Source: a virus
Taxonomy: Duplodnaviria > Heunggongvirae > Uroviricota > Caudoviricetes
DNA: 38,573 nt
Reading direction: 5' to 3' (one strand)
Virus record (IMG/VR): IMGVR_UViG_2706794695_000013
Part shown: positions 15,491-38,573 of the stretch, one piece after another
How positions within the stretch are numbered: position 1 is the first letter of the stretch
How the letters are laid out: each line of letters starts with the position of its first letter
The notes under the pieces: model-generated
What the model saw: the letters and a program-made list of their open reading frames with translations, nothing else
The model's database searches: none
Told to the model about the DNA's origin: nothing
Program-made: the position numbers and the translations under genes

Positions 15491-17449
15491 TTACGCCGTA
15501 CATTTCACCAGACCGCGGTGATCAACTGGCGCGACACCGGCGTCAATACGCACTTTCGTTGTCACGCCATCCACACTGAAGCCCTCCATCTGATCAATAT
15601 ATGGCGTATCCACACCGTTGAGATAAGCCACTTCAATCGTATCGGAGCCTTTTGACGCAGCCAGGTAGAAGGTGGTCTGGCTGTTATCATCAAGACGAGG
15701 CTCTGCAATAACGGTCGCAAAATCTTTCACCGGGTTAATAATACCGGCGTTAATGTCGGCCCCCTTGACACTTGAGGAGCGAATGACCTGGTTAGCAACA
15801 GACTCCATCGCCGTCGGTACCAGTACGAACGCAGGACGAATATTCAGATGACGCTCCCCCTCTTTCTGAACGCGCATCAACTGGCGGGCTTTATCCAGCG
15901 ATGCCACGTCCATTGCAGCGCTATCCAGTACGTTTGCATGTTTCGCTTTATCGAACAGACTTACATTATCTGTGGAGATTTTCGGGTTAGACGTCAGAAT
16001 GGCATAAACCAGATCGGCAATAGTGGATTTCGCCGCACGGCCCAGTTTCATCGGGACATCGGTCAGCATATTCAGATCATCATTGATAATGGCCTGACGG
16101 GTGATACTGAACAGCTCGCCATAGGTCGCCAGTGCAATAGTGGCCTGTTTATCTCCGGTGGTGACGTATTTATATTCCGCCCCTTCACGCACCTGACGCA
16201 GAGCACTGAAGCCCCCCATACCCACACGATGGGCAATTTTAAAATCAGACAACTGACCTTTCCGCGTCCACTGTTCATAGGTTTCAGGGGCATCTTCCCA
16301 GCCCTGCAGAATGGCTTTGTTCGCAACATCCAGCAGAATATTACCGAAGTCAGACGTACTGTGTGTGAACGCCGCACCGACCATCTGCATCGGGTTATAA
16401 CTGGAAACCCCAATACCCCGTTCAGTCAGTGACATACGGGCATATTCACGCAGGGTCATCCCGTTGTAGACATTATCACGTTCGGTTTTTTCAAATCCGG
16501 CACGCGCCATCAGCGCCTGGCGGATCCCGTCCCCCACAAAATTACCGTTTCCGGCATAAATATGAGCCGGGGTATTTTTATTGGATGGCGTGGACTCGCG
16601 CCCCATCTCGTTCAACAGCTTTTCGCGGGCCTGCTCCAGCGAACATTCAGGATCGGCAAGACACTGAGCCTGCAGCGTCTGATAACGCCCGCCAAACATG
16701 GCAAACAGATCATTAATACCGTTTACACGCGCTTTTTGCTCTGCCAGTACCTGCGCACGGATACTGTTTTCATCCACCACGGGTGCTGCTGCCTGCACTG
16801 GCGTCCGGGAGGCTGCAGGTTCATCATCCTGTACGCGTGGAGCACTGTTGCGTGGCGGAGTAATCATGTTTCGAATGGATTCCGGCATCTTTTTAAATTC
16901 CTCTGTACGTTTTGACTGAATACATGCCATTGCCTTAACGGCTGGCGTCACCTGATCAGCAAATCCCTGTGCCAGACATTCGGCACCGGACATCCAGGTC
17001 TCATCCGCCAGCATGGCAGCAATTTCATCGGTGGTTTTCCCGGTTTTCTGTGCATAAGCGGGTAACAGAACCGCCTCAACCTTATCGAGCAGGTCGGCAT
17101 AGGTGCGCATGTCCTCCGCATCACCGCCCGTAAAGCCAAATGGTTTATGAATCATCATGAAGGTGTTTTCCGGCATAATGACCGGGTTTCCCACCATCGC
17201 AATGACCGACGCCATTGACGCCGCCACACCGTCGACATAAACGGTAATGGACGCACCATGTGTTTTCAGCGCATTAAAAATGGCGATGCCTTCAAAGACA
17301 TCGCCACCCGGTGAATTAATATGGAGATTAATGTGGGTGATATCGCCCAGTGCATTCAGATCACTGATAAACTGCTTCGCTGTAACACCCCAGAAACCAA
17401 TCTCGTCATAAATATAAATATCCGCGTCACTCTGGTGACCAGCCTGCAT
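15491..17449 (-). CDS. Prohead protease (ClpP/S49-like) fused to HK97-fold major capsid protein
   Basis: From ATG 17449: MQAGHQSDADIYIYDEIGFWGV...INSPGGDVFEG... is a ClpP-type protease signature, followed by a long C-terminal capsid-like domain; lies directly after the portal gene. Confidence 0.8.
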   Translation of the reverse strand: MQAGHQSDADIYIYDEIGFWGVTAKQFISDLNALGDITHINLHINSPGGDVFEGIAIFNALKTHGASITVYVDGVAASMASVIAMVGNPVIMPENTFMMIHKPFGFTGGDAEDMRTYADLLDKVEAVLLPAYAQKTGKTTDEIAAMLADETWMSGAECLAQGFADQVTPAVKAMACIQSKRTEEFKKMPESIRNMITPPRNSAPRVQDDEPAASRTPVQAAAPVVDENSIRAQVLAEQKARVNGINDLFAMFGGRYQTLQAQCLADPECSLEQAREKLLNEMGRESTPSNKNTPAHIYAGNGNFVGDGIRQALMARAGFEKTERDNVYNGMTLREYARMSLTERGIGVSSYNPMQMVGAAFTHSTSDFGNILLDVANKAILQGWEDAPETYEQWTRKGQLSDFKIAHRVGMGGFSALRQVREGAEYKYVTTGDKQATIALATYGELFSITRQAIINDDLNMLTDVPMKLGRAAKSTIADLVYAILTSNPKISTDNVSLFDKAKHANVLDSAAMDVASLDKARQLMRVQKEGERHLNIRPAFVLVPTAMESVANQVIRSSSVKGADINAGIINPVKDFATVIAEPRLDDNSQTTFYLAASKGSDTIEVAYLNGVDTPYIDQMEGFSVDGVTTKVRIDAGVAPVDHRGLVKCTA

Positions 17450-28805: not shown

Positions 28806-29195
28806 TCAGGCGGCTGCACCCGCCGGTTTCTCATACTTACTGATAGTGATCTCGACCTTCCCTTTCTGGATAACCGGTCCCCACTCCACCAGCATTCTTT
28901 TCACCTGGCTGTCGTCTTCCCACACCCCCGCGTGGGTCAGGGCGTCAAACAGCGCCTTGTTATAGTTGTCCAGATCGCGGATCCGGTTATCCGGAGGAAA
29001 CAACACGATCTCCACTGAAGCAGGTGCCGACGTTGGTTTTGGCAGACGACGTAACTGCTCAACTATTGCTGCGCACGCCGCGCTCTGAAATTTTCGCCCC
29101 GCCGCGCTTATCAGGCTCTTACCAGCAAATGCCCCTTTGTTGGGGTGTCGCCAGTACGTGTTCACGCTGGGCGGGAAAGGCAGGATCAGCTTCAT
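28806..29195 (-). CDS. rusA: Holliday junction resolvase RusA
   Basis: 129 aa; ...PPSVNTYWRH...DLDNYNKALFDALTHAGVWEDDSQV... matches the RusA family. Confidence 0.85.
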   Translation of the reverse strand: MKLILPFPPSVNTYWRHPNKGAFAGKSLISAAGRKFQSAACAAIVEQLRRLPKPTSAPASVEIVLFPPDNRIRDLDNYNKALFDALTHAGVWEDDSQVKRMLVEWGPVIQKGKVEITISKYEKPAGAAA

Positions 29196-29518
29196 ACTTT
29201 CAGGCCTCTCTCATGTAACCAGTGGGTTGCACGCAGCCTGGCGTTTTCCTCACCGGCAAGCAGTGAGCGGATAATCCCGACCGCCTCGCTGTCGTCGTCC
29301 TTCACCGCGGTATGAAGAGTGATACCCCGGGCCATGCCACGCTTTATCGTGATGACGCCTTTTTTCTCCAGTGCGCGAAGATGTTCCACCGCTGCATTCA
29401 CTGAACGGTATCCCAGCATGGTTGCCACCTCCTGATTGGTTGGCGGGAAGCCACGTTCTTTCTGGTAAGAAATCAGCATATCCAGCACCTGCTGCTGGCA
29501 TTGAGTTAACGTCGTCAT
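29192..29518 (-). CDS. LexA-type winged-helix DNA-binding protein (DNA-binding domain only)
   Basis: 108 aa; LTQCQQQVLDMLISYQKERGFPPTNQEVATMLGYRSVNAAVEHLRALEKKGVI resembles the LexA N-terminal domain. Confidence 0.55.
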   Translation of the reverse strand: MTTLTQCQQQVLDMLISYQKERGFPPTNQEVATMLGYRSVNAAVEHLRALEKKGVITIKRGMARGITLHTAVKDDDSEAVGIIRSLLAGEENARLRATHWLHERGLKV

Positions 29519-30168
29519 GCCGCCATCTCCCTGACCAGTTTTTCCGCCTGCTGGCGAACCTGCGCCAGAAACGCCTCACCACATGCCTCAAGTTCATCGC
29601 GCCCGATGTAGCTGATTGCCGGTCCCTTCCAGGTCTTGTCGAAAACAGCAATAGCACCAGCGAAGAAAGCGCCTGTCGGCACCTGCTTCTCGTCCTTCGG
29701 GATAAACCAGGCAGGCAGTTCAAAACCAATACGCCCGCGAATAAAAGCAATATGATCTGCATCTTCCGGCCACCACACTTCGCTGGTGGCAGCTTTGATC
29801 AGGAAAACATAGCGTCCGCCCTTATCACGCATGGCACTGGCATGTTTCATGATGTAACGCATGCCGGTGATGTATTGCCCTTCATGCTGACTGGCGCGGC
29901 TGTACGGGGGATTACCAAAGGCAGCACCTTTAAGCTCCGCAAGACGTTCAGACCAGTCATGCGCCAGCGCGTTGTCTTCCGCAGTGTAATAAGCGGCACA
30001 TTTGGCGTTATCACCATCAGTGAACAGATCCAGAACAAACGGGCCAAACAGGGTGTTAATTCCCCAGAAAATGTTATCCGGCGTGCGCCACTGATCGCCC
30101 ACTTCCTTCAGTTCATGGGCTGGTTTGTTCCGCAGCTCCACCAGCGCCTGGCAATATTTATTACTCAT
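29515..30168 (-). CDS. Phage Dam-type N6-adenine DNA methyltransferase
   Basis: From ATG 30168: MSNKYCQALVEL...; catalytic NPPY motif (AFGNPPYSRA). Confidence 0.8.
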   Translation of the reverse strand: MSNKYCQALVELRNKPAHELKEVGDQWRTPDNIFWGINTLFGPFVLDLFTDGDNAKCAAYYTAEDNALAHDWSERLAELKGAAFGNPPYSRASQHEGQYITGMRYIMKHASAMRDKGGRYVFLIKAATSEVWWPEDADHIAFIRGRIGFELPAWFIPKDEKQVPTGAFFAGAIAVFDKTWKGPAISYIGRDELEACGEAFLAQVRQQAEKLVREMAA

Positions 30169-30662
30169 TAAGCCCCCACGTAATTCCCTGACAGATACCA
30201 CTCTTCACCCGATGCAGCGCGCTTGCTGCTTTTCCGTAAGCACCGCTCACGACGCGCCAGAAAATTGTTTCGTTCTGGCTGGGAGTGGCTTTCACGGAAT
30301 GCCGCCATCCACACCGTTGCAGCACGACGGTATAAGCCCCTGGACTCCAGTTCTTCCGCCTGGCGGGTCAGGCACAAAATCACCCGGGGATCGTTAGTGC
30401 CGACATAGAAATTGCGCACAGGTCTGGTTTCACGAACTGGTTGTGGTTCCGGCTCCTGCGCTCTCTCAGTCAGGCGTGGGAAATGTCTGCGTGTATCTCC
30501 TTCATAACGGTGAGCCACACGCCCACTCTGACGTAACTTGCTTGCTGACTGCAGAACGCGCTGCCGTGAGTAACCTGCAAAAGCATCCGCAATGTCTCCG
30601 GAAGTACACCCCGGATGGGCTTCAATGAATTTCTGAACTTCATTCAAAAGACTCATGATCAC
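30168..30662 (-). CDS. PerC-family (Pch-like) transcriptional regulator with N-terminal extension
   Basis: C-terminal ELESRGLYRRAATVWMAAF fits the PerC signature L-E-x2-G-L-W/Y-R-R-A-A-x2-W; track start is GTG, ATG at about 30656. Confidence 0.5.
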   Translation of the reverse strand: MIMSLLNEVQKFIEAHPGCTSGDIADAFAGYSRQRVLQSASKLRQSGRVAHRYEGDTRRHFPRLTERAQEPEPQPVRETRPVRNFYVGTNDPRVILCLTRQAEELESRGLYRRAATVWMAAFRESHSQPERNNFLARRERCLRKSSKRAASGEEWYLSGNYVGA

Positions 30663-31477
30663 CCCCTGAATCCTGCCGGGATCTGGCTGTAGTCCACGTT
30701 GTCGTAACTGGCTTTGAAGTACGGGTCCTCGCGTCTGGCTGCAGATACCGCAGGAACTTCCCAGAATTCTTCGAAATGACGATCCGGACCAAAGAACGTG
30801 ACAGCCTGTTTCACAAATTGTGTGCCGCTGTTACCCATCGCAGATACCCATCCCGCGTAGCGTTTCACACCTTCCAGCATGGTTTCGGGGTTTACTCCCT
30901 CATTCAAACGGGCTTTCCAGGCTTTGAAGGCTGCAGATTTTGAATTGCCACCAGCACGTTTGGGATATGCCAGCCATGCCTGCTCAAACTCCGGAGAGTA
31001 TTCCGGTCGGTTTGAACGAACTCGCACGGACTCATCAACTGATGCACCAACAGCTATTGGTTCATTGACTGGTTCTTTGACTGGTTCAAAAGAGTGACTG
31101 GTTCTGGGTGAATCTCCTGCACTACCCCCTGGTGCAACTCCTGCACTACCTGGTGAATTTGCTGCACCAGATAGTGAATTATTTGCACTACCCCCTAGTG
31201 AATCTCCTGCACCATCCAGATGAAGGAGATAGATATTACTTGAGTTACCTTTTTCACCTTTCCGGGTGACTTTTTTTACCAGCCCGGACTCACAAAGGGC
31301 CGCAATATGATTCATCACAGAACGTTTGCTAATTTCGCACTGGTCAGCAATATGCTGGTAGCTGGGCCAGCACTCACCCTGATCGCTGGCATTATCAGCC
31401 AGCTTGATCAGAACCAGTTTTCGCAATGGATTACCCACTCGAATTTTCATCGCTTTAACCATCAGCTCCATACTCAT
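30659..31477 (-). CDS. Replication initiator, lambda O-like (HTH N-terminus, iterons inside the gene)
   Basis: 272 aa; central repetitive Gly/Ser/Ala linker is encoded by the iteron array, as in lambda O. Confidence 0.7.
   Translation of the reverse strand: MSMELMVKAMKIRVGNPLRKLVLIKLADNASDQGECWPSYQHIADQCEISKRSVMNHIAALCESGLVKKVTRKGEKGNSSNIYLLHLDGAGDSLGGSANNSLSGAANSPGSAGVAPGGSAGDSPRTSHSFEPVKEPVNEPIAVGASVDESVRVRSNRPEYSPEFEQAWLAYPKRAGGNSKSAAFKAWKARLNEGVNPETMLEGVKRYAGWVSAMGNSGTQFVKQAVTFFGPDRHFEEFWEVPAVSAARREDPYFKASYDNVDYSQIPAGFRG
31107..31217. repeat. Iteron array (candidate origin), about five imperfect ~22-bp direct repeats
   Basis: ggtgaatctcctgcactaccccct / ggtgcaactcctgcactacct / ggtgaatttgctgcaccagata / gtgaattatttgcactaccccct / agtgaatctcctgcaccatcc, followed by an AT-richer stretch. 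Confidence 0.6.
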
Positions 31478-31710
31478 GCTGCACCTCCGAGATGCTTCAT
31501 GTTTTTTCCGGAGCGAAAGGCTATAAGCGGCATACTGACGCGGTAATTACGGCCCAGCGGTTCACAAATCACCTTCTGGCATTCACGGTCAACCAGGCTA
31601 ACACGTAGAACATGCCCTGCAGGCGTGGTGTACCACTGCCCAACTGTAGGAATTGATATTTTTTTACGCTGAAGCAAACGGCAAATATTGAGGATCAACG
31701 GATTAAGCAT
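31474..31710 (-). CDS. Hypothetical protein, 78 aa
   Basis: GGAGG SD 8 nt upstream of the ATG; overlaps both neighbours by a few nt (coupled translation). Confidence 0.45.
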   Translation of the reverse strand: MLNPLILNICRLLQRKKISIPTVGQWYTTPAGHVLRVSLVDRECQKVICEPLGRNYRVSMPLIAFRSGKNMKHLGGAA

Positions 31711-32539
31711 GACGATGCCCTCCGCTGATATTCAGGAGACGGTGAATATGAAAATTAGCCTTATCCGCCAGACGAATACGTTCAGCTTGCAAGTTAAGAA
31801 GGGTTTCTACCAGAACCTGATGTGCCTGCGGATCCGAAAGAGTTACCTTGCGCAGAGCACGTAGTGCAGTTGTTACATAACTGAGTTTATGTAAGTCTTC
31901 ATCATTCAGACGAGTGAGGGCTGGGACAGTAGCCATGATGGCAGCCTCCTTGATCGGTGAAATACTTCCACCACCGGAAACGCCAATTTCGCTGGTGGTG
32001 AACTGAACGGGGTTGGCGTAACCGGTGATCAAGGAAACCGGCGCATCTTTCGATGCCCCCGCCCAGCCCACCATAACTTTGATGTGAGCAAATGCGGACG
32101 ATAAAAAAGACGCTGGCGCGTCATATATCGCCTTGATCAATTCCAGGACGCCAATCCCGGCACCCGCTTTATAAGGTGCCTGAACAGTGTAACGTCCCGG
32201 AATGGCAGAATCAATGTGCTGGTGGTCCTTCACACTCAACAAAATCACGCCTGAATTTCCACAAAGGACTAAAGCACTCATGCGGGTAGTCTTTGCGAAG
32301 ATAGATAACGCGCTGTGTTTCTGGCTCCCAACGAATAACATGAACATAAAGTCCTCTTCCGTCACGAAACCAGCGGTTAAGTTCCTGCACAACTCGCCCC
32401 CCACAGTCAGGTAAAGTTCTCTGTGGTTACTTACAGCCAGGTGATTTGGTAATCTGCATTCATGCCGTAACAACAGGTGTTCAGCGACGCTGACCACCAG
32501 CTGTTGCGACAAACGGTTATTTGCCGTTAAACTGTTCAT
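31703..32539 (-). CDS. Hypothetical protein, 278 aa
   Basis: GGAG SD upstream of the ATG; ATGA-type overlap with the upstream gene; no Walker motif or recognisable family. Confidence 0.5.
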   Translation of the reverse strand: MNSLTANNRLSQQLVVSVAEHLLLRHECRLPNHLAVSNHRELYLTVGGELCRNLTAGFVTEEDFMFMLFVGSQKHSALSIFAKTTRMSALVLCGNSGVILLSVKDHQHIDSAIPGRYTVQAPYKAGAGIGVLELIKAIYDAPASFLSSAFAHIKVMVGWAGASKDAPVSLITGYANPVQFTTSEIGVSGGGSISPIKEAAIMATVPALTRLNDEDLHKLSYVTTALRALRKVTLSDPQAHQVLVETLLNLQAERIRLADKANFHIHRLLNISGGHRHA

Positions 32540-33099
32540 GCGTTAGTTTCTCCACAGACACAAAACGCCACGACGCCCGGAGCTGCACACTCGCGGGCGT
32601 CACTCTTTTCTGGAGCGCAAAAGATTTTGTAGACCAGTGCTGCATGCTCCTGGAGCTTCGAAATTGACAGATACAACTCATCATTAATTGCTGTCTGCTC
32701 GTGTGGCTCCACTACCCCATCTTCGATTGCCGAACGAATCTGCTTTGAGTAACTCCCGATCTGTTCGATGACTTCCAGCAGGCGCTGGTTTATATCGGCG
32801 TTCTCTACTTCCTCAATTTCAGGAAGCGATACAAACACCCCACCAGCAGACTGTGCGACAGCATCCGCAATGTAGTGAGTGCCAGCCGCGCGCTGTAAAA
32901 TCATTGCCCATCCCAGCGGGAAAATCTGATCGCCATCTGCACGAAGGCGGTTGAATAAAGCGTTCTCTGTTACATCCAGCCACTCAGCAGCTTCAGCGTA
33001 ACCCCCCGGCAACGCCGCGATAGTTTTTCTGACAGCTTTCACGTACCACTCAGGCTGTTTTTCTACTTTCCAGTGATGCTTACCCACGGTTAGCCTCAT
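32536..33099 (-). CDS. Hypothetical early protein, 187 aa (possibly a CII/CP76-like regulator)
   Basis: First gene after cro in the early-right operon; acidic C-terminal half; family assignment is from memory only. Confidence 0.45.
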   Translation of the reverse strand: MRLTVGKHHWKVEKQPEWYVKAVRKTIAALPGGYAEAAEWLDVTENALFNRLRADGDQIFPLGWAMILQRAAGTHYIADAVAQSAGGVFVSLPEIEEVENADINQRLLEVIEQIGSYSKQIRSAIEDGVVEPHEQTAINDELYLSISKLQEHAALVYKIFCAPEKSDARECAAPGVVAFCVCGETNA

Positions 33100-33421: not shown

Positions 33422-34096
33422 ATGAAAACAGTCCATGACATCCGGCGGTCTAACGCCAGAAAACTGAGAGATGGTGTTGGCGGGAATTCTTCCTTTGCCA
33501 CCATGATTGATCGCGAGCCAACCCAGACCAGCAGGTTTATGGGAGATGGTGCAACTAAAAATATCGGTGACAGCATGGCACGGCACATCGAAAAATGTTT
33601 CGACCTGCCTGTCGGATGGCTTGATCAAGAACACCAGACAACGAACATCACAAAAAAACCTGACGTTTCAATCACTAACAAACAAATAACGTTAGTCCCT
33701 GTCATATCATGGGTACAGGCCGGAGCATGGAAAGAAGTTGGCTATTCTGAGGTTGATTTGAGCACAGCAGAAACTTATCCCTGCCCTGTACCCTGTGGCG
33801 AAATGACTTATATCTTGCGGGTGATTGGTGATTCAATGATTGATGAGTACCGCCCGGGAGACATGATTTTTGTTGATCCTGAAGTCCCTGCCTGCCACGG
33901 TGACGACGTTATTGCATTGATGCACGATACAGGCGAAACCACCTTCAAGCGGTTGATAGAAGATGGAACACAGCGTTATCTCAAAGCATTAAACCCAAAC
34001 TGGCCTGAGCCTTACATTAAGATTAACGGTAATTGCTCTATAATTGGTACAGTGATTTTCTCAGGAAAACCAAGAAGATACATAATAAAGGCCTAA
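33422..34096 (+). CDS. CI-type repressor with C-terminal S24 (LexA-like) autopeptidase domain
   Basis: 224 aa; catalytic Ser in VIGDSM and Lys in TFKRL; N-terminal DNA-binding region; divergent from cro. Confidence 0.85.
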   Translation: MKTVHDIRRSNARKLRDGVGGNSSFATMIDREPTQTSRFMGDGATKNIGDSMARHIEKCFDLPVGWLDQEHQTTNITKKPDVSITNKQITLVPVISWVQAGAWKEVGYSEVDLSTAETYPCPVPCGEMTYILRVIGDSMIDEYRPGDMIFVDPEVPACHGDDVIALMHDTGETTFKRLIEDGTQRYLKALNPNWPEPYIKINGNCSIIGTVIFSGKPRRYIIKA

Positions 34097-34163: not shown

Positions 34164-34782
34164 TATCTAAAAGAAACACAGCACAGGCAAGATTAAACAA
34201 AATTTGGTTGTAACACGGCGTATGGCACATGCGTCGTTAGCGGTCTGGGGACGTTAAAGGGGACAATCCACTCCTTGCTCGGGCAAACAAACCAGGTAGC
34301 CGGAATGTGCAAGTCAATGATGATGCTGATAAGACGCCTAACCAGCGTGGCGATTCGGTTTGACGCCTGGGAAGAGACCAGGGTGCAACGATGAGGACAT
34401 TTATGGAACCGCGACAAAGTGTGGTGCCGTAACTGGCTAAGTGCTCTCAGCGTTGTGGTGAATGCGCAGGCTGATGCGCGAAAGACATTGCAGCTAATGC
34501 GGAAAAGAGCTGTTCGGCGGGGCAATTAAACGCCCGTGAGAGTCTGAAATAACCGCAAGCCGGAGATCAGCACCGGTCACCACAACAGCCACTGCTTTGG
34601 CGGTACCAGTTTGTACACTTGCTTCCGGCTGGTACCGCTCTTTTTACAAAACAGAGAAGAGCATCACCGGACGACGGGCTCATAACCAAATCCATCCGGG
34701 CGGCTGCCACCGCAGGTGTTCTTCTCTGTTTTGTGGAGAAACCAACCGACCTTGCAGGGTCGATATGATTAGGAGCAGCAAA

Positions 34783-35145
34783 ATGGCTAGCGAACGCAGT
34801 ACTGATGTGCAGGCATTTATTGGGGAGCTGGACGGCGGCGTATTTGAAACCAAAATCGGCGCAGTTCTCAGTGAAGTCGCTTCCGGTGTGATGAACACGA
34901 AAACCAAAGGTAAGGTCTCACTCAACCTGGAAATCGAACCATTTGATGAGAACCGTGTGAAAATCAAACACAAACTCTCATATGTTCGCCCGACTAACCG
35001 CGGGAAAATTTCCGAAGAAGACACCACCGAAACGCCGATGTATGTCAATCGCGGTGGTCGCCTGACTATTCTGCAGGAAGACCAGGGACAATTACTGACT
35101 CTTGCCGGTGAACCTGACGGAAAACTCCGCGCAGCAGGTCATTAA
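34783..35145 (+). CDS. Hypothetical protein, 120 aa (YfdP-like by recollection)
   Basis: ATG at 34783 with AGGAG 7 nt upstream (MASERSTDVQAFIGELDGG...); track ORF starts at an upstream TTG. Confidence 0.55.
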   Translation: MASERSTDVQAFIGELDGGVFETKIGAVLSEVASGVMNTKTKGKVSLNLEIEPFDENRVKIKHKLSYVRPTNRGKISEEDTTETPMYVNRGGRLTILQEDQGQLLTLAGEPDGKLRAAGH

Positions 35146-35210
35146 TATCGTTCTTAATTAACCGATTATTTATCTCATCACTGAATATCTTTATATAGTG
35201 AGGACTTATT

Positions 35211-36035
35211 ATGTCTCAGAACTTAGACGCAACCGCAATTAATCAAATCCATGCCCTTATTTCTGCTCAGGGTGTTAATGAAATTATCAGTAAGATTGGT
35301 GCCGATGCTGTGGCATTGCCTGAGAATTTCCGCATTCATGATCTGGAAAAATTAAATTTAAATCGTTTCCGTTTCCGTGGTGCGCTTTCCACTGCCAGCA
35401 TCGATGACTTTACTCGTTATTCTAAAGATCTTGCAGATGAAGGCACCCGCTGCTTTATCGATGCTGATAATATGCGTGCCGTCAGTGTTCTTAACCTGGG
35501 TACTATTGATGAACCAGGTCACGCAGATAACACCGCCACTCTCAAACTGAAAAAGACAGCTCCGTTCTCTGCTCTGTTGTCTGTTAATGGCGAGCGTAAC
35601 TCCCAGAAGTCACTGGCAGAATGGATTGAAGACTGGGCCGACTACCTTGTGGGCTTTGATGCTAATGGTGACGCCATTCAGGCAACCAAAGCGGCTGCGG
35701 CGATCCGTAAAATCACAATTGAAGCGAACCAGACCGCTGATTTTGAAGATAATGACTTCAGCGGCAAACGCTCCCTGATGGAGTCTGTCGAAGCGAAGAC
35801 CAAAGACATTATGCCAGTGGCATTTGAATTTAAATGCGTTCCGTTTGAAGGTCTGAAAGAACGTCCGTTTAAATTACGCCTCAGCATTATCACTGGCGAT
35901 CGTCCTGTACTGGTTCTGCGCATTATTCAGCTGGAAGCGGTACAGGAAGAAATGGCTAACGAATTTCGTGATCTGCTTGTTGAGAAATTCAAAGACAGCA
36001 AAGTAGAAACCTTTATTGGTACTTTCACCGCCTGA
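35211..36035 (+). CDS. Hypothetical protein, 274 aa (YfdQ-like / DUF2303 by recollection)
   Basis: Complete [24 protein letters not shown]...; co-oriented and adjacent to the 120-aa gene. Confidence 0.55.
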
Positions 36036-37584: not shown

Positions 37585-38004
37585 TTACTCATCATCAATA
37601 GATGATACGCAATATTTATTTTTAAATTTAAGGTTCTTTGGCGTAACTTCATCAGATATATCAAAACCGTCCAGAATTCTATTGAATGTAGCTTCTGGCA
37701 TATCATCATGAACGGAAATCTCACCCGATCGCTGCTTTCTAACCATGTTATCCACTCGCCAAATTATAGCTTCAGCGTAAACAACATAACTTGGATGCTT
37801 GATAAAGCGATGATCACCAGAATTCAAGACGCAAGACGGATCGTGGGGGACACCATCCTTGATACTAGAAATATTAACAACTAAAACACAATAACAATCG
37901 TTAACGGGGTAATAAACAGGATCATTACAAATCACATGAAGATGATTGCATGGCCCAGTTGGGGCAAGCACAGTTCCTTTCCTGTATGGCTGATAATCCG
38001 TCAT
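37585..38004 (-). CDS. Hypothetical protein, 139 aa, translationally coupled to the Panacea-like gene (candidate toxin)
   Basis: ATGA overlap with the upstream stop at 38001-38004; Cys/His-containing MTDYQPYRKGTVLAPTGPCNHLHVICNDP...; no recognisable family. Confidence 0.55.
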   Translation of the reverse strand: MTDYQPYRKGTVLAPTGPCNHLHVICNDPVYYPVNDCYCVLVVNISSIKDGVPHDPSCVLNSGDHRFIKHPSYVVYAEAIIWRVDNMVRKQRSGEISVHDDMPEATFNRILDGFDISDEVTPKNLKFKNKYCVSSIDDE

Positions 38005-38573
38005 GATAATTGCAAAGAAAATTCCTTAAGTTTCTGAGATTCTTCCATTTTGCCAATTATACGATTAGCCTCATCCTCGCTTTTACCCTCACTGATCAGC
38101 ATTTCTTTCAGGTCTATAGGCTTACGAGAATTGCCAGGATTGTGCCACTCTGGACAAACGCTTTCTAAATGCGTCATGTTTGCGAGATCAAATCGGTTCA
38201 TATGCCCATACAGAGAATAGATTTCATCTAAAATCCGGATATCTGCACGGCTCAACTCATCAAAGACCTCGTCTGCATCCATTTCCCTCGGATCTGAACG
38301 CAACAACACATCATGCCCGTTCGTCTCTATCAGGTTGTACCAGTAGTCACCAATACCTTCAGCCTTACCACGAATCAAGTTCAGCGTATTCGACATGACT
38401 GGACCAAATTTCATAGAGTAAAGGCTATCTTCGCCGATCATCCTGCCATGCTTCAAAATCGACTTGCGGTTAGACAGATAGAGCAGCTTCATCAATTTCA
38501 GATATGCCATGCGCCCACCTCGCTTAAGAAGTAGGTATGCAGCCATTTGAGCTACTTTTTCTTCGCAAAACAT
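38001..38573 (-). CDS. Panacea-domain (DUF4065, SocA/GepA-like) protein, candidate antitoxin; N-terminus may extend beyond the window
   Basis: VAQMAAYLLLKRGGRMAYLKLMKLLYLSNRK...SMKFGPVMSNTLNLI fits the Panacea pattern (T-x-LKL-x-KLLY ... F-x-A-x2-GPV); ORF begins at the last base of the window. Confidence 0.6.
   Translation of the reverse strand: MFCEEKVAQMAAYLLLKRGGRMAYLKLMKLLYLSNRKSILKHGRMIGEDSLYSMKFGPVMSNTLNLIRGKAEGIGDYWYNLIETNGHDVLLRSDPREMDADEVFDELSRADIRILDEIYSLYGHMNRFDLANMTHLESVCPEWHNPGNSRKPIDLKEMLISEGKSEDEANRIIGKMEESQKLKEFSLQLS

Follow-up and report, generated by a model that had tools for sequence, protein, structure and literature searches.

Bacteriophages of the lambda kind often carry their replication origin inside the gene of the initiator protein that acts on it, and here we describe a candidate origin of this type in a 38,573-nucleotide (nt) stretch of viral DNA (IMG/VR record IMGVR_UViG_2706794695_000013; the window), an SfV-like lambdoid prophage of Escherichia coli with an Eru6-type replication module. 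Five direct repeats within the window's initiator gene very probably constitute a functional iteron origin with the layout known from lambda and P22, and the initiator ends in a short peptide that matches the C-terminus of the host protein DnaT. The explanation that we prefer overall, at a probability of about 0.6, couples this intragenic iteron origin to loading of the host helicase through the tail. The origin would be an undescribed member of the lambda/P22 kind within the HTH_36 initiator family, and its loader-less, DnaT-tailed form appears to be new. A concrete origin (iterons, a 37-nt core and the initiator) is thereby proposed for a replication module found in very many E. coli prophages; Eru6-type replication has so far been described only at the level of gene content, and replication of Shiga toxin (Stx) phages seems to be needed for effective toxin production (PMC7466680).

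Probable iterons within the initiator gene

Tandem Repeats Finder reported 4.6 copies of a 24-nt unit at 31108-31212, and a separate repeat search gave the same family. The five units, in coding-strand orientation, begin at 31221, 31197, 31173, 31152 and 31131 and measure 24, 24, 21, 21 and 24 nt, respectively, each containing a version of the 15-nt core GTGCAnnAnnTTCAC. The cores (31198-31212, 31174-31188, 31153-31167, 31132-31146 and 31108-31122) read, in this order, GTGCAGGAGATTCAC, GTGCAAATAATTCAC, GTGCAGCAAATTCAC, GTGCAGGAGTTGCAC and again GTGCAGGAGATTCAC, with a mean pairwise identity of 0.81. The original prediction, made from the letters of the sequence, of about five direct repeats of about 22 base pairs (bp) inside the coding region of the initiator was borne out by these five units of 21-24 nt (31108-31222), as was its comparison with lambda ori, given that the central part of the initiator's own reading frame contains at least four direct repeats of about 20 bp. 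The outer arms of the iteron dyad (GTGmA/TkCAC) pair, and clearer dyads are found in other iteron types of the family (CTGTGC...GCACAG, GGGCAG...CTGCCC). With at most one mismatch, the pattern GTGCANNANNTTCAC occurs seven times in the 38.6-kilobase window against 1.2 expected, a count that none of 100 shuffles reached, and five of the seven matches form one same-strand cluster, the array; the observed repeat count was reached by one of 200 codon shuffles of the initiator gene. Since shuffled sequences rarely or never attain this repetition, chance does not account for it.

The protein whose gene contains the array scores 44.1 bits against PF13730 (HTH_36; cut-off 25), and it matches phrog_270 ('replication initiation protein') with 2.4e-88. 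Against Pfam it showed no Phage_rep_O match, and DnaD_N scored only 24.3 bits, below the cut-off of 27; the label 'O-like', under which the gene was first described, must accordingly give way to HTH_36-type. An AlphaFold2 model of the whole initiator is of moderate quality (mean predicted local distance difference test score, pLDDT, 58), with an N-terminal winged-helix domain (helices 3-11, 17-28, 40-47 and 51-64; strands 67-73 and 79-85), for which Foldseek against the PDB returned generic winged-helix matches only (E >= 0.009), including the DnaD N-domain 2v79. Residues 91-158 are predicted to be disordered (pLDDT below 50), and it is this linker (...GAGDSLGGSANNSLSGAANSPGSAGVAPGGSAGDSP...), between the winged-helix domain and a small helical C-domain, that the array encodes.

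To follow the array across related initiators, we assembled a family sample of 237 complete homologous genes with their flanks from IMG/VR, using three diverged N-domain queries, and added four genome or metagenome loci. A first scan with the window's N-domain returned only N-domains 99-100% identical to it and served for copy-number polymorphism rather than co-variation, for which the scan was repeated with two diverged N-domains. Clustering of the first 88 residues at 88% identity yielded 24 N-domain clusters in the 237 genes, and the main clusters each possess their own tandem repeat of 21-24 bp in the linker: the recognition helix ISKRSVMNHI is paired with GTGCAGGAGATTCAC, CSKSAVRAHI (type B) with CTGTGCCGTCAAAAAGCACAG (sub-variants CTATGCCACCAGATGGCA and CTGTGCCATCTGCTGACA), VSRSTVKSHI (type C) with GGGGCAGGAGCTGCCC, and IGRSTVKVHI with GGGGCAGGAGATAACCC. 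The N-domain varies chiefly in its recognition helix and wing (aa 47-88), where conservation among 19 cluster representatives is 0.68, against 0.90 at amino acids (aa) 1-46. Two natural recombinants, P0072 (locus L083) and P0066 (L084), combine a foreign N-domain with foreign repeats and are identical to the window protein straight after the repeats; as the exchange point lies just 3' of the repeats, iterons and N-domain are exchanged together. The repeat units of L083 encode dissimilar peptides (PVSSESIA, PCAVKKHS, PMPPKSTG...), and the constraint therefore acts on DNA.

These observations support the view that the repeats are DNA signals, putatively iterons bound by the initiator, and not peptide repeats. 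Were they instead no more than a flexible Gly/Ser/Ala-rich linker without a role in cis, the true origin lying elsewhere, it would be natural that all five units are multiples of 3 nt encoding similar peptides of 7-8 aa (GGSAGDSP and the like), and that slippage changes the number of copies, as it does in ordinary coding repeats. This we consider very improbable: the DNA-binding domain and the repeat DNA vary together, type-B units of 23-25 nt yield unrelated peptides, homologues from Klebsiella and Citrobacter retain GTGCAGGAGATTCAC cores at a protein identity of 67%, the adjoining 37-nt element is conserved at synonymous sites, and the position equals that of the proven lambda and P22 origins.

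The array is polymorphic in copy number: homologues have 242-302 aa and 2 to about 9 units. Prophages that are near-identical differ in having 1-3 copies of the 21-nt iteron (GSAGVAP), and duplications of the whole array give proteins of 294-302 aa; a two-iteron form of 250 aa was found on 64 contigs. Variants in the copy number of 31058-31222 include loci L003, L013, L026, L032, L036 and L065, and proteins P0001, P0008 and P0028. The sample also contains a second loader-less initiator class (L089-L113, e.g. L090 3501-4523) of 340 aa, which has a CSKSAVRAHI-type N-domain with its own iterons and a Phg_2220_C-like (DnaD-type) C-domain (E 4.9e-6) ending in ...AYAMxGxQA, and is followed by DUF968, RusA and Q genes.

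The 37-nt element that adjoins the last iteron (Table 1) is present in 208 of the 237 family genes regardless of N- or C-domain type. Its 76 distinct variants show conservation of 0.97, 0.94 and 0.91 at codon positions 1, 2 and 3; it contains the rare codon AGA, and non-synonymous changes are as frequent as synonymous ones. By BLASTN, phages of Vibrio, Aeromonas, Stenotrophomonas, Pectobacterium and Aggregatibacter have it in their replication genes, and Stx phages 24B and Min27 in their O genes. The three GAACCAGTCA copies that overlap it belong to a region whose 12-nt unit (EPVK) occurs in 1-4 copies among relatives, and which is mildly AT-richer (GC 0.40-0.45). An AT-richer stretch beside the repeats had been part of the original prediction; what remains of it is a mild dip in GC (0.40-0.45 at 31030-31119, against 0.50 for the gene), of a sort also seen elsewhere in the initiator gene and not like that of lambda. 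We infer that the 37-nt element may be an unwinding or loading site, occupying the position of the AT-rich tract in lambda; alternatively, it may be a recombination 'linker' sequence retained through module exchange.

The DnaT-like tail and its possible part in helicase supply

No gene for a helicase or a helicase loader was recognized in the window. Fourteen phmmer queries (DnaB-like, DnaC-like, lambda-P-like and primase-helicase proteins from related loci, together with E. coli DnaC and DnaT) had no match at E <= 10 among the 330 window open reading frames (ORFs) of at least 50 aa; Pfam detected no helicase, loader or primase-helicase in the ten ORFs between Q and cII; Pfam and PHROGs assigned the neighbouring genes to regulators, Dam, RusA and so forth, with no ATPase; and the NCBI annotation of the whole prophage of strain A14, which is integrated at dusA and is 99.96% identical to window positions 10512-38573, includes no helicase, loader or primase gene. 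The earlier statement that no P, DnaC or DnaB homologue follows the initiator thus holds both for the window and for a near-identical complete prophage, and the next gene is indeed PerC-like, encoding a protein with a winged helix and a PerC domain. The accompanying suggestion that the initiator uses host factors or an unrecognized partner can now be narrowed to specific candidates, namely a DnaT-like tail (and through it host DnaC-DnaB) and a small DUF4222-like ORF upstream.

The window initiator ends in ...VDYSQIPAGFRG and E. coli DnaT in ...EPDSQIPPGFRG (the tail peptide DNVDYSQIPAGFRG beside EPDSQIPPGFRG), with eight of the last nine residues identical and both motifs at the exact C-terminus. 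Among 120 DnaT orthologues with overall identities of 71-100%, IPxGFRG hardly varies. At the DNA level, the initiator and DnaT tails share 22 of 27 nt, and the differences are mainly synonymous, which points to selection on the peptide. We also considered whether the entire C-terminal half is a DnaT-like domain. The C-domain (helices 162-170, 180-192 and 197-214; pLDDT about 70-80) belongs to no Pfam family and gave nothing significant in searches against the PDB, Pfam, NCBIfam and DnaT, nor did Foldseek against the PDB; PHROG matches to phrog_26426, 3729 and 1701 are confined to the C-terminal part, and the three-helix C-terminal DNA-binding domain of the DnaT family (PF17948) has no Pfam or PDB sequence match in the initiator. 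The idea was dropped because these sequence and profile searches were empty; only the tail matches.

Within the initiator family, the C-terminal tail (last 10-30 residues) tracks the partner gene, as judged by scanning the next three ORFs with Pfam checks. Tails of the forms ...EGW(E/K)DF(I/L) and ...DDLGGL are followed by a lambda-P-like gene (PF06992), ...YVFFDR by a Toprim plus DnaB_C primase-helicase, and ...NF, ...NW, IAGxGQ and WTKNL by IstB/DnaC-like plus DnaB-like genes; likewise, lambda-O-like C-domains go with a P-like gene and P22-like C-domains with a DnaB-like gene. Lambda-O-type relatives in the sample end in TDWIYGIQL, and lambda O itself in what we take to be ...TDWIYGVDL. The window's IPxGFRG tail is followed by no helicase or loader gene in any of 73 loci (51 distinct proteins), versus 117 of 124 loci with other tails (the 340-aa class being left out of the latter). 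The closest relatives, P0088 and P0077 from Klebsiella and Citrobacter, have C-domains 67-70% identical to that of the window, other tails, and then DnaC-like and DnaB-like genes. Over about 240 natural variants, the family shows a rule: the iteron goes with the recognition helix and wing, and the helicase-loading partner with the last 10-30 residues, which makes the family a ready-made set of natural domain swaps.

The same tail recurs in other initiator families. In the Rac prophage, YdaU ends in ...VSLPDSAIPPGFRG, and YdaV, encoded 6 nt downstream, shares 50% of its residues with DnaC along its entire length; the O-like protein of Gifsy-2 ends in ...APDKTIPTGFRG, and the next gene encodes a DnaC-like protein (49% identical to DnaC); and in E. 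coli itself, dnaC starts 2 nt after dnaT. These three systems share the C-terminal motif ...(D)x(Q/A/T)IPxGFRG-COOH with the window protein, from which they differ in having a DnaC-clade gene 2-6 nt downstream and in their N-domains (DUF1376, Phage_rep_O or the DnaT N-domain, as opposed to HTH_36). DnaC-like proteins that accompany other tails are only 27-37% identical to DnaC and are without its N-terminal 40-60 residues. A Klebsiella phage with a DUF1376-type initiator ending in ...IPPGFRGGPAP has no annotated loader either. On the simplest reading of these sequence comparisons, IPxGFRG would be a contact for loaders of the DnaC clade, and the phage would use host DnaC-DnaB; that the tail recruits DnaC/DnaB specifically is a narrower claim, to which we give even odds.

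Under the preferred explanation, initiator dimers would bind the five iterons through their N-terminal winged-helix domains, as the co-variation suggests, and the resulting nucleoprotein complex would destabilize or mark the adjoining 37-nt element with its GAACCAGTCA repeats. Helicase and loader would come from outside the phage, which encodes neither: judging by the gene neighbourhoods, the flexible tail ...DYSQIPAGFRG could dock on host DnaC in the DnaB6-DnaC6 complex and so deliver DnaB to the origin.

Several points tell against this explanation. The dyad in the iteron core is modest, with 8 of 15 positions self-complementary; a strongly AT-rich tract of the lambda type is absent beside the iterons (58-60% AT), and there is no DnaA box near the origin, the only match in the window being at 17049, so that the unwinding role proposed for the 37-nt element is a guess. 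The C-domain is not homologous to that of DnaT (hhalign probability 0.4% against DnaT and 0.8% against a YdaU/DnaT profile), leaving only the 9-residue motif in common. The association of tail and partner is partly confounded by relatedness, as most IPxGFRG loci are near-identical and SfV-type, with only L083 and L084 as independent recombinants. For DnaT, a 2026 study of the preprimosome (PMC13377028) suggests that DnaB/DnaC may be recruited by the N-terminal domain; the C-domain of DnaT docks on PriA, and the tail may accordingly have PriA, PriB or single-stranded DNA (ssDNA) as its target. Finally, directly at the initiator start of all 108 loader-less loci (81 SfV-type, 25 of the 340-aa Phg_2220_C type, L083 and L114) lies an ORF of the 78-aa type or a DUF4222 ORF, as against 3 of about 115 loader-encoding loci, and this ORF may be the true partner.

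If the tail bound PriA or PriB, the origin might feed into the PriA-PriB restart primosome, on which host DnaT, DnaC and DnaB would then assemble. The tail is the sole DnaT-like part of the initiator; in the cryo-electron microscopy preprimosome, the linker of DnaT lies on PriB while its C-domain is docked on PriA (PMC13377028), and the only role that we found in the literature for DnaT residues 154-179 is a contribution to cooperative ssDNA binding (PMC4132743). We nevertheless regard this route as unlikely, since across initiator families the tail accompanies DnaC-clade genes and not priA or priB, and within the family tails track the type of loader or helicase. Moreover, the Rac and Gifsy-2 phages keep the tail despite having a DnaC homologue of their own, which makes a contact between tail and DnaC the easier explanation.

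A phage-encoded partner that has escaped recognition is likewise unlikely, the origin being real on this account as well. Its prime candidate is the 78-aa ORF, which is coupled to the initiator in translation and for which the linkage given above is the chief argument; in N-type 8 alone, a small ORF lies at the initiator start in 27 of 27 loader-less versus 2 of 13 loader-encoding loci. Its product belongs to phrog_1153 (function unknown), has no Pfam match and resembles DUF4222 only weakly (a BLASTP hit to a DUF4222 ORF at E 6e-4). Small ORF products of this kind have 60-78 aa and neither an ATPase nor a known DnaB-binding motif, and the loader-less loci represent a few closely related lineages, in which linkage of the upstream flank can explain the association. 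The weaker candidate is the PerC protein (phrog_1324, 'transcriptional activator', with a MarR-like winged helix in its N-terminal half), the gene for which is found solely beside IPxGFRG initiators (63 of 73 loci) and is absent or deleted in the other 10, including L083, where 28 codons are left. Considered as a hidden loader, the PerC protein was rejected: it has no ATPase, is dispensable in those 10 loci, and has a counterpart in a similar winged-helix ORF after P-like genes elsewhere. Either partner would also leave the DnaT-identical tail unexplained. In other lineages, a true DUF4222 ORF replaces the 78-aa ORF.

Returning to a tail that contacts DnaC, the host dnaT-dnaC operon looks like a domesticated phage initiator-loader module, because YdaU and DnaT are homologous at their C-termini (YdaU 211-285 versus DnaT 111-179: 40% identity, E 9e-9), YdaV is half identical to DnaC, and gene order and spacing match. 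The K-12 Rac ydaU-ydaV locus (L248 1620-3230) and dnaT-dnaC (L001 1739-3018) show the same order and tight spacing. We found no paper stating that dnaT-dnaC is a domesticated phage module, and literature searches returned nothing on a DnaT-like tail in phage initiators or linking ydaU, dnaT and phage initiator tails. Taken together, and tentatively, as the combination falls somewhat short of even odds, IPxGFRG-COOH might be a portable docking peptide for E. coli-type DnaC (or DnaB6-DnaC6), dnaT-dnaC a domesticated module of the ydaU-ydaV type, and the DnaT tail the element that brings DnaB/DnaC to the restart primosome, SfV- and Eru6-type phages having dropped their own loader. How DnaT recruits DnaB/DnaC has been stated to be unresolved (PMC13377028), and the tail common to DnaT, YdaU and the Gifsy-2 O-like protein offers a cheap and direct test. 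If the proposal is true, the DnaT C-terminal tail would be the long-sought recruiting element, and these phages would have kept the tail while turning to the host's domesticated DnaC.

Comparison with known replication systems

The lambda origin lies in the middle of the initiator gene and consists of 4-6 direct repeats of about 20 bp with internal dyads, spaced at about two helical turns; the N-domain of lambda O binds the iterons, which encode a flexible linker, and the C-terminal part sets the helicase-loading partner (PMC7466680, PMC8022706). Iterons inside the initiator gene are an established architecture of lambda, P22 and L (PMC8022706). The window shares with lambda, and with the Stx phages 933W and P27, intragenic iterons and the layout of N-domain, linker and C-terminal part. 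It differs from lambda in having an HTH_36 in place of a Phage_rep_O initiator, the 37-nt element with GAACCAGTCA repeats in place of the AT-rich tract, and a DnaT-like tail with no P gene. For P22, a rep_origin is annotated inside gene 18 (L247 1841-1985), and each initiator type has its own iteron sequence (PMC8022706). Iterons and origin inside the initiator gene are common to the window and to genes 18/12 of P22 and of phage L, whereas P22 and L encode a DnaB-type helicase of their own (P22 gene 12), and P22 gp18 has a Phage_rep_O-type N-domain and a C-terminus, ...LLRPKVLIAIREGTL, that are unlike those of the window initiator.

Eru6 was defined as a replication region of Shiga-toxin phages comprising a Rha-family gene and an HTH_36 gene (Fagerlund et al. 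2022, PMC8951638). The reference Stx2a_WGPS2 (AP012537) has the same HTH_36 initiator gene, with 98.4% DNA identity over the shared part and 100% identity to a 53-nt origin-core query, and a Rha-family companion where the window has its Ash-family gene. The Eru papers mention neither iterons (the word 'iteron' occurs 0 times) nor an origin or a missing loader, and literature searches on iterons in SfV, ST64B or HTH_36 phages found nothing.

Iteron plasmids (RK2 TrfA, pSC101 RepA, R6K pi) also combine a winged-helix initiator on tandem iterons with host DnaB (plus DnaC) and have no loader of their own. Their origins are intergenic and contain an AT-rich unwinding element together with DnaA boxes, and the Rep proteins have WH1-WH2 folds; the window, by comparison, has an intragenic origin with no DnaA box nearby, and a single winged-helix domain with a DnaT-like tail.

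Prophage context and neighbouring genes

At the DNA level, the region 30100-32600 matches Shigella phage SfV (orf37 to dam) with 98.6% identity, several Stx2c/Stx2a phages, mEp460, 2H10 and Ayreon with 96-98%, and prophages of several E. coli genomes with 100%. A match to it was found in 3113 of 5426 complete E. coli genomes, with at least 80% of the region covered in 701. The module occurs in phage genomes deposited as isolates (SfV, mEp460, 2H10, Ayreon), and we therefore take it to be replication-competent and not a wreck; SfV presumably replicates and forms plaques without a helper. A case for decay of the module, in which deletion of loader and helicase genes would have left the prophage unable to replicate alone, might be made from the DnaC-like and DnaB-like genes that relatives with 67-70% identical initiators have where the window has PerC and Dam, and from a copy in K-12 CPS-53 (yfdN/yfdO region) that we understand to be defective. 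Such decay is highly unlikely in view of the 701 genomes and the isolated phages just mentioned (the Stx2c/Stx2a phages among them), an intact initiator ORF, and a tail conserved in 51 distinct protein variants.

Table 1. Features of the window, in window coordinates, with putative functions where indicated.
Feature	Position	Strand	Remarks
Replication initiator gene	30659-31477	minus	272 aa; SfV orf39 homologue; PF13730 HTH_36, phrog_270
N-terminal winged-helix DNA-binding domain	31214-31477	minus	aa 1-88; AlphaFold2 pLDDT 76-91
Iteron array (putative)	31108-31222	minus	five direct repeats, 15-nt core GTGCAnnAnnTTCAC; inside initiator linker
37-nt origin-core element (putative)	31071-31107	minus	CCAGAACCAGTCACTCTTTTGAACCAGTCAAAGAACC, peptide RTSHSFEPVKEP; directly 3' of last iteron
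Three exact GAACCAGTCA copies	31095-31104, 31078-31087, 31066-31075 (span 31066-31104)	minus	overlap the 37-nt element
C-terminal helical domain	30728-31039	minus	aa 147-250; motif EFEQAWxxYPKRxG...TQFVKQAxTFFGPDRHF
C-terminal tail SQIPAGFRG-COOH	30662-30688	minus	same motif as last nine residues of E. coli DnaT (SQIPPGFRG)
Winged-helix + PerC protein, yfdN-like	30168-30662	minus	PF06069, 36.1 bits (cut-off 22.6), residues 100-151
78-aa ORF, SfV orf38	31474-31710	minus	stop overlaps initiator start by 4 nt
Ash-family gene	31703-32539	minus	DUF4222 ORF inside
CII/CP76-like gene	32536-33099	minus
cI	33422-34096	plus

On the minus strand, the early-right operon comprises, in order, cro/YdaS-like, CII/CP76-like and Ash-family genes, the 78-aa ORF, the initiator and the winged-helix plus PerC gene, followed by genes for Dam, a protein consisting of a LexA DNA-binding domain only, RusA, KilA-N, DUF968 and Q. 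The 278-aa ORF at 31703-32539 is annotated as one gene in SfV (orf37); the NCBI pipeline calls two genes there, one of the Ash family (31703-32248) and, in a different frame, one for DUF4222 (32211-32390, minus strand), and in related phages the ORF gives way to a Rha-family gene. The LexA-domain protein (29192-29518, minus strand; 108 aa; PF01726, 69.5 bits) is without the peptidase domain and is kept just downstream of Dam in most SfV-type modules; from its domain content, it could be a non-cleavable LexA mimic.

At the right end of the window (37585-38573, minus strand), a Panacea-domain gene lies beside a dusA fragment, the prophage being inserted in dusA; in A14, genes for a reverse transcriptase, SLATT, DinI and the integrase occupy the far end of the prophage, which is outside the window. 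In the early-left operon (34597-36035, plus strand) are genes homologous to yfdP and yfdQ, which belong to CPS-53, a cryptic prophage of K-12. The K-12 yfdQRST cluster inhibits chromosomal initiation, and YfdR binds DnaA (PMC4776307); the yfdP and yfdQ homologues may have a bearing on how the phage handles host replication.

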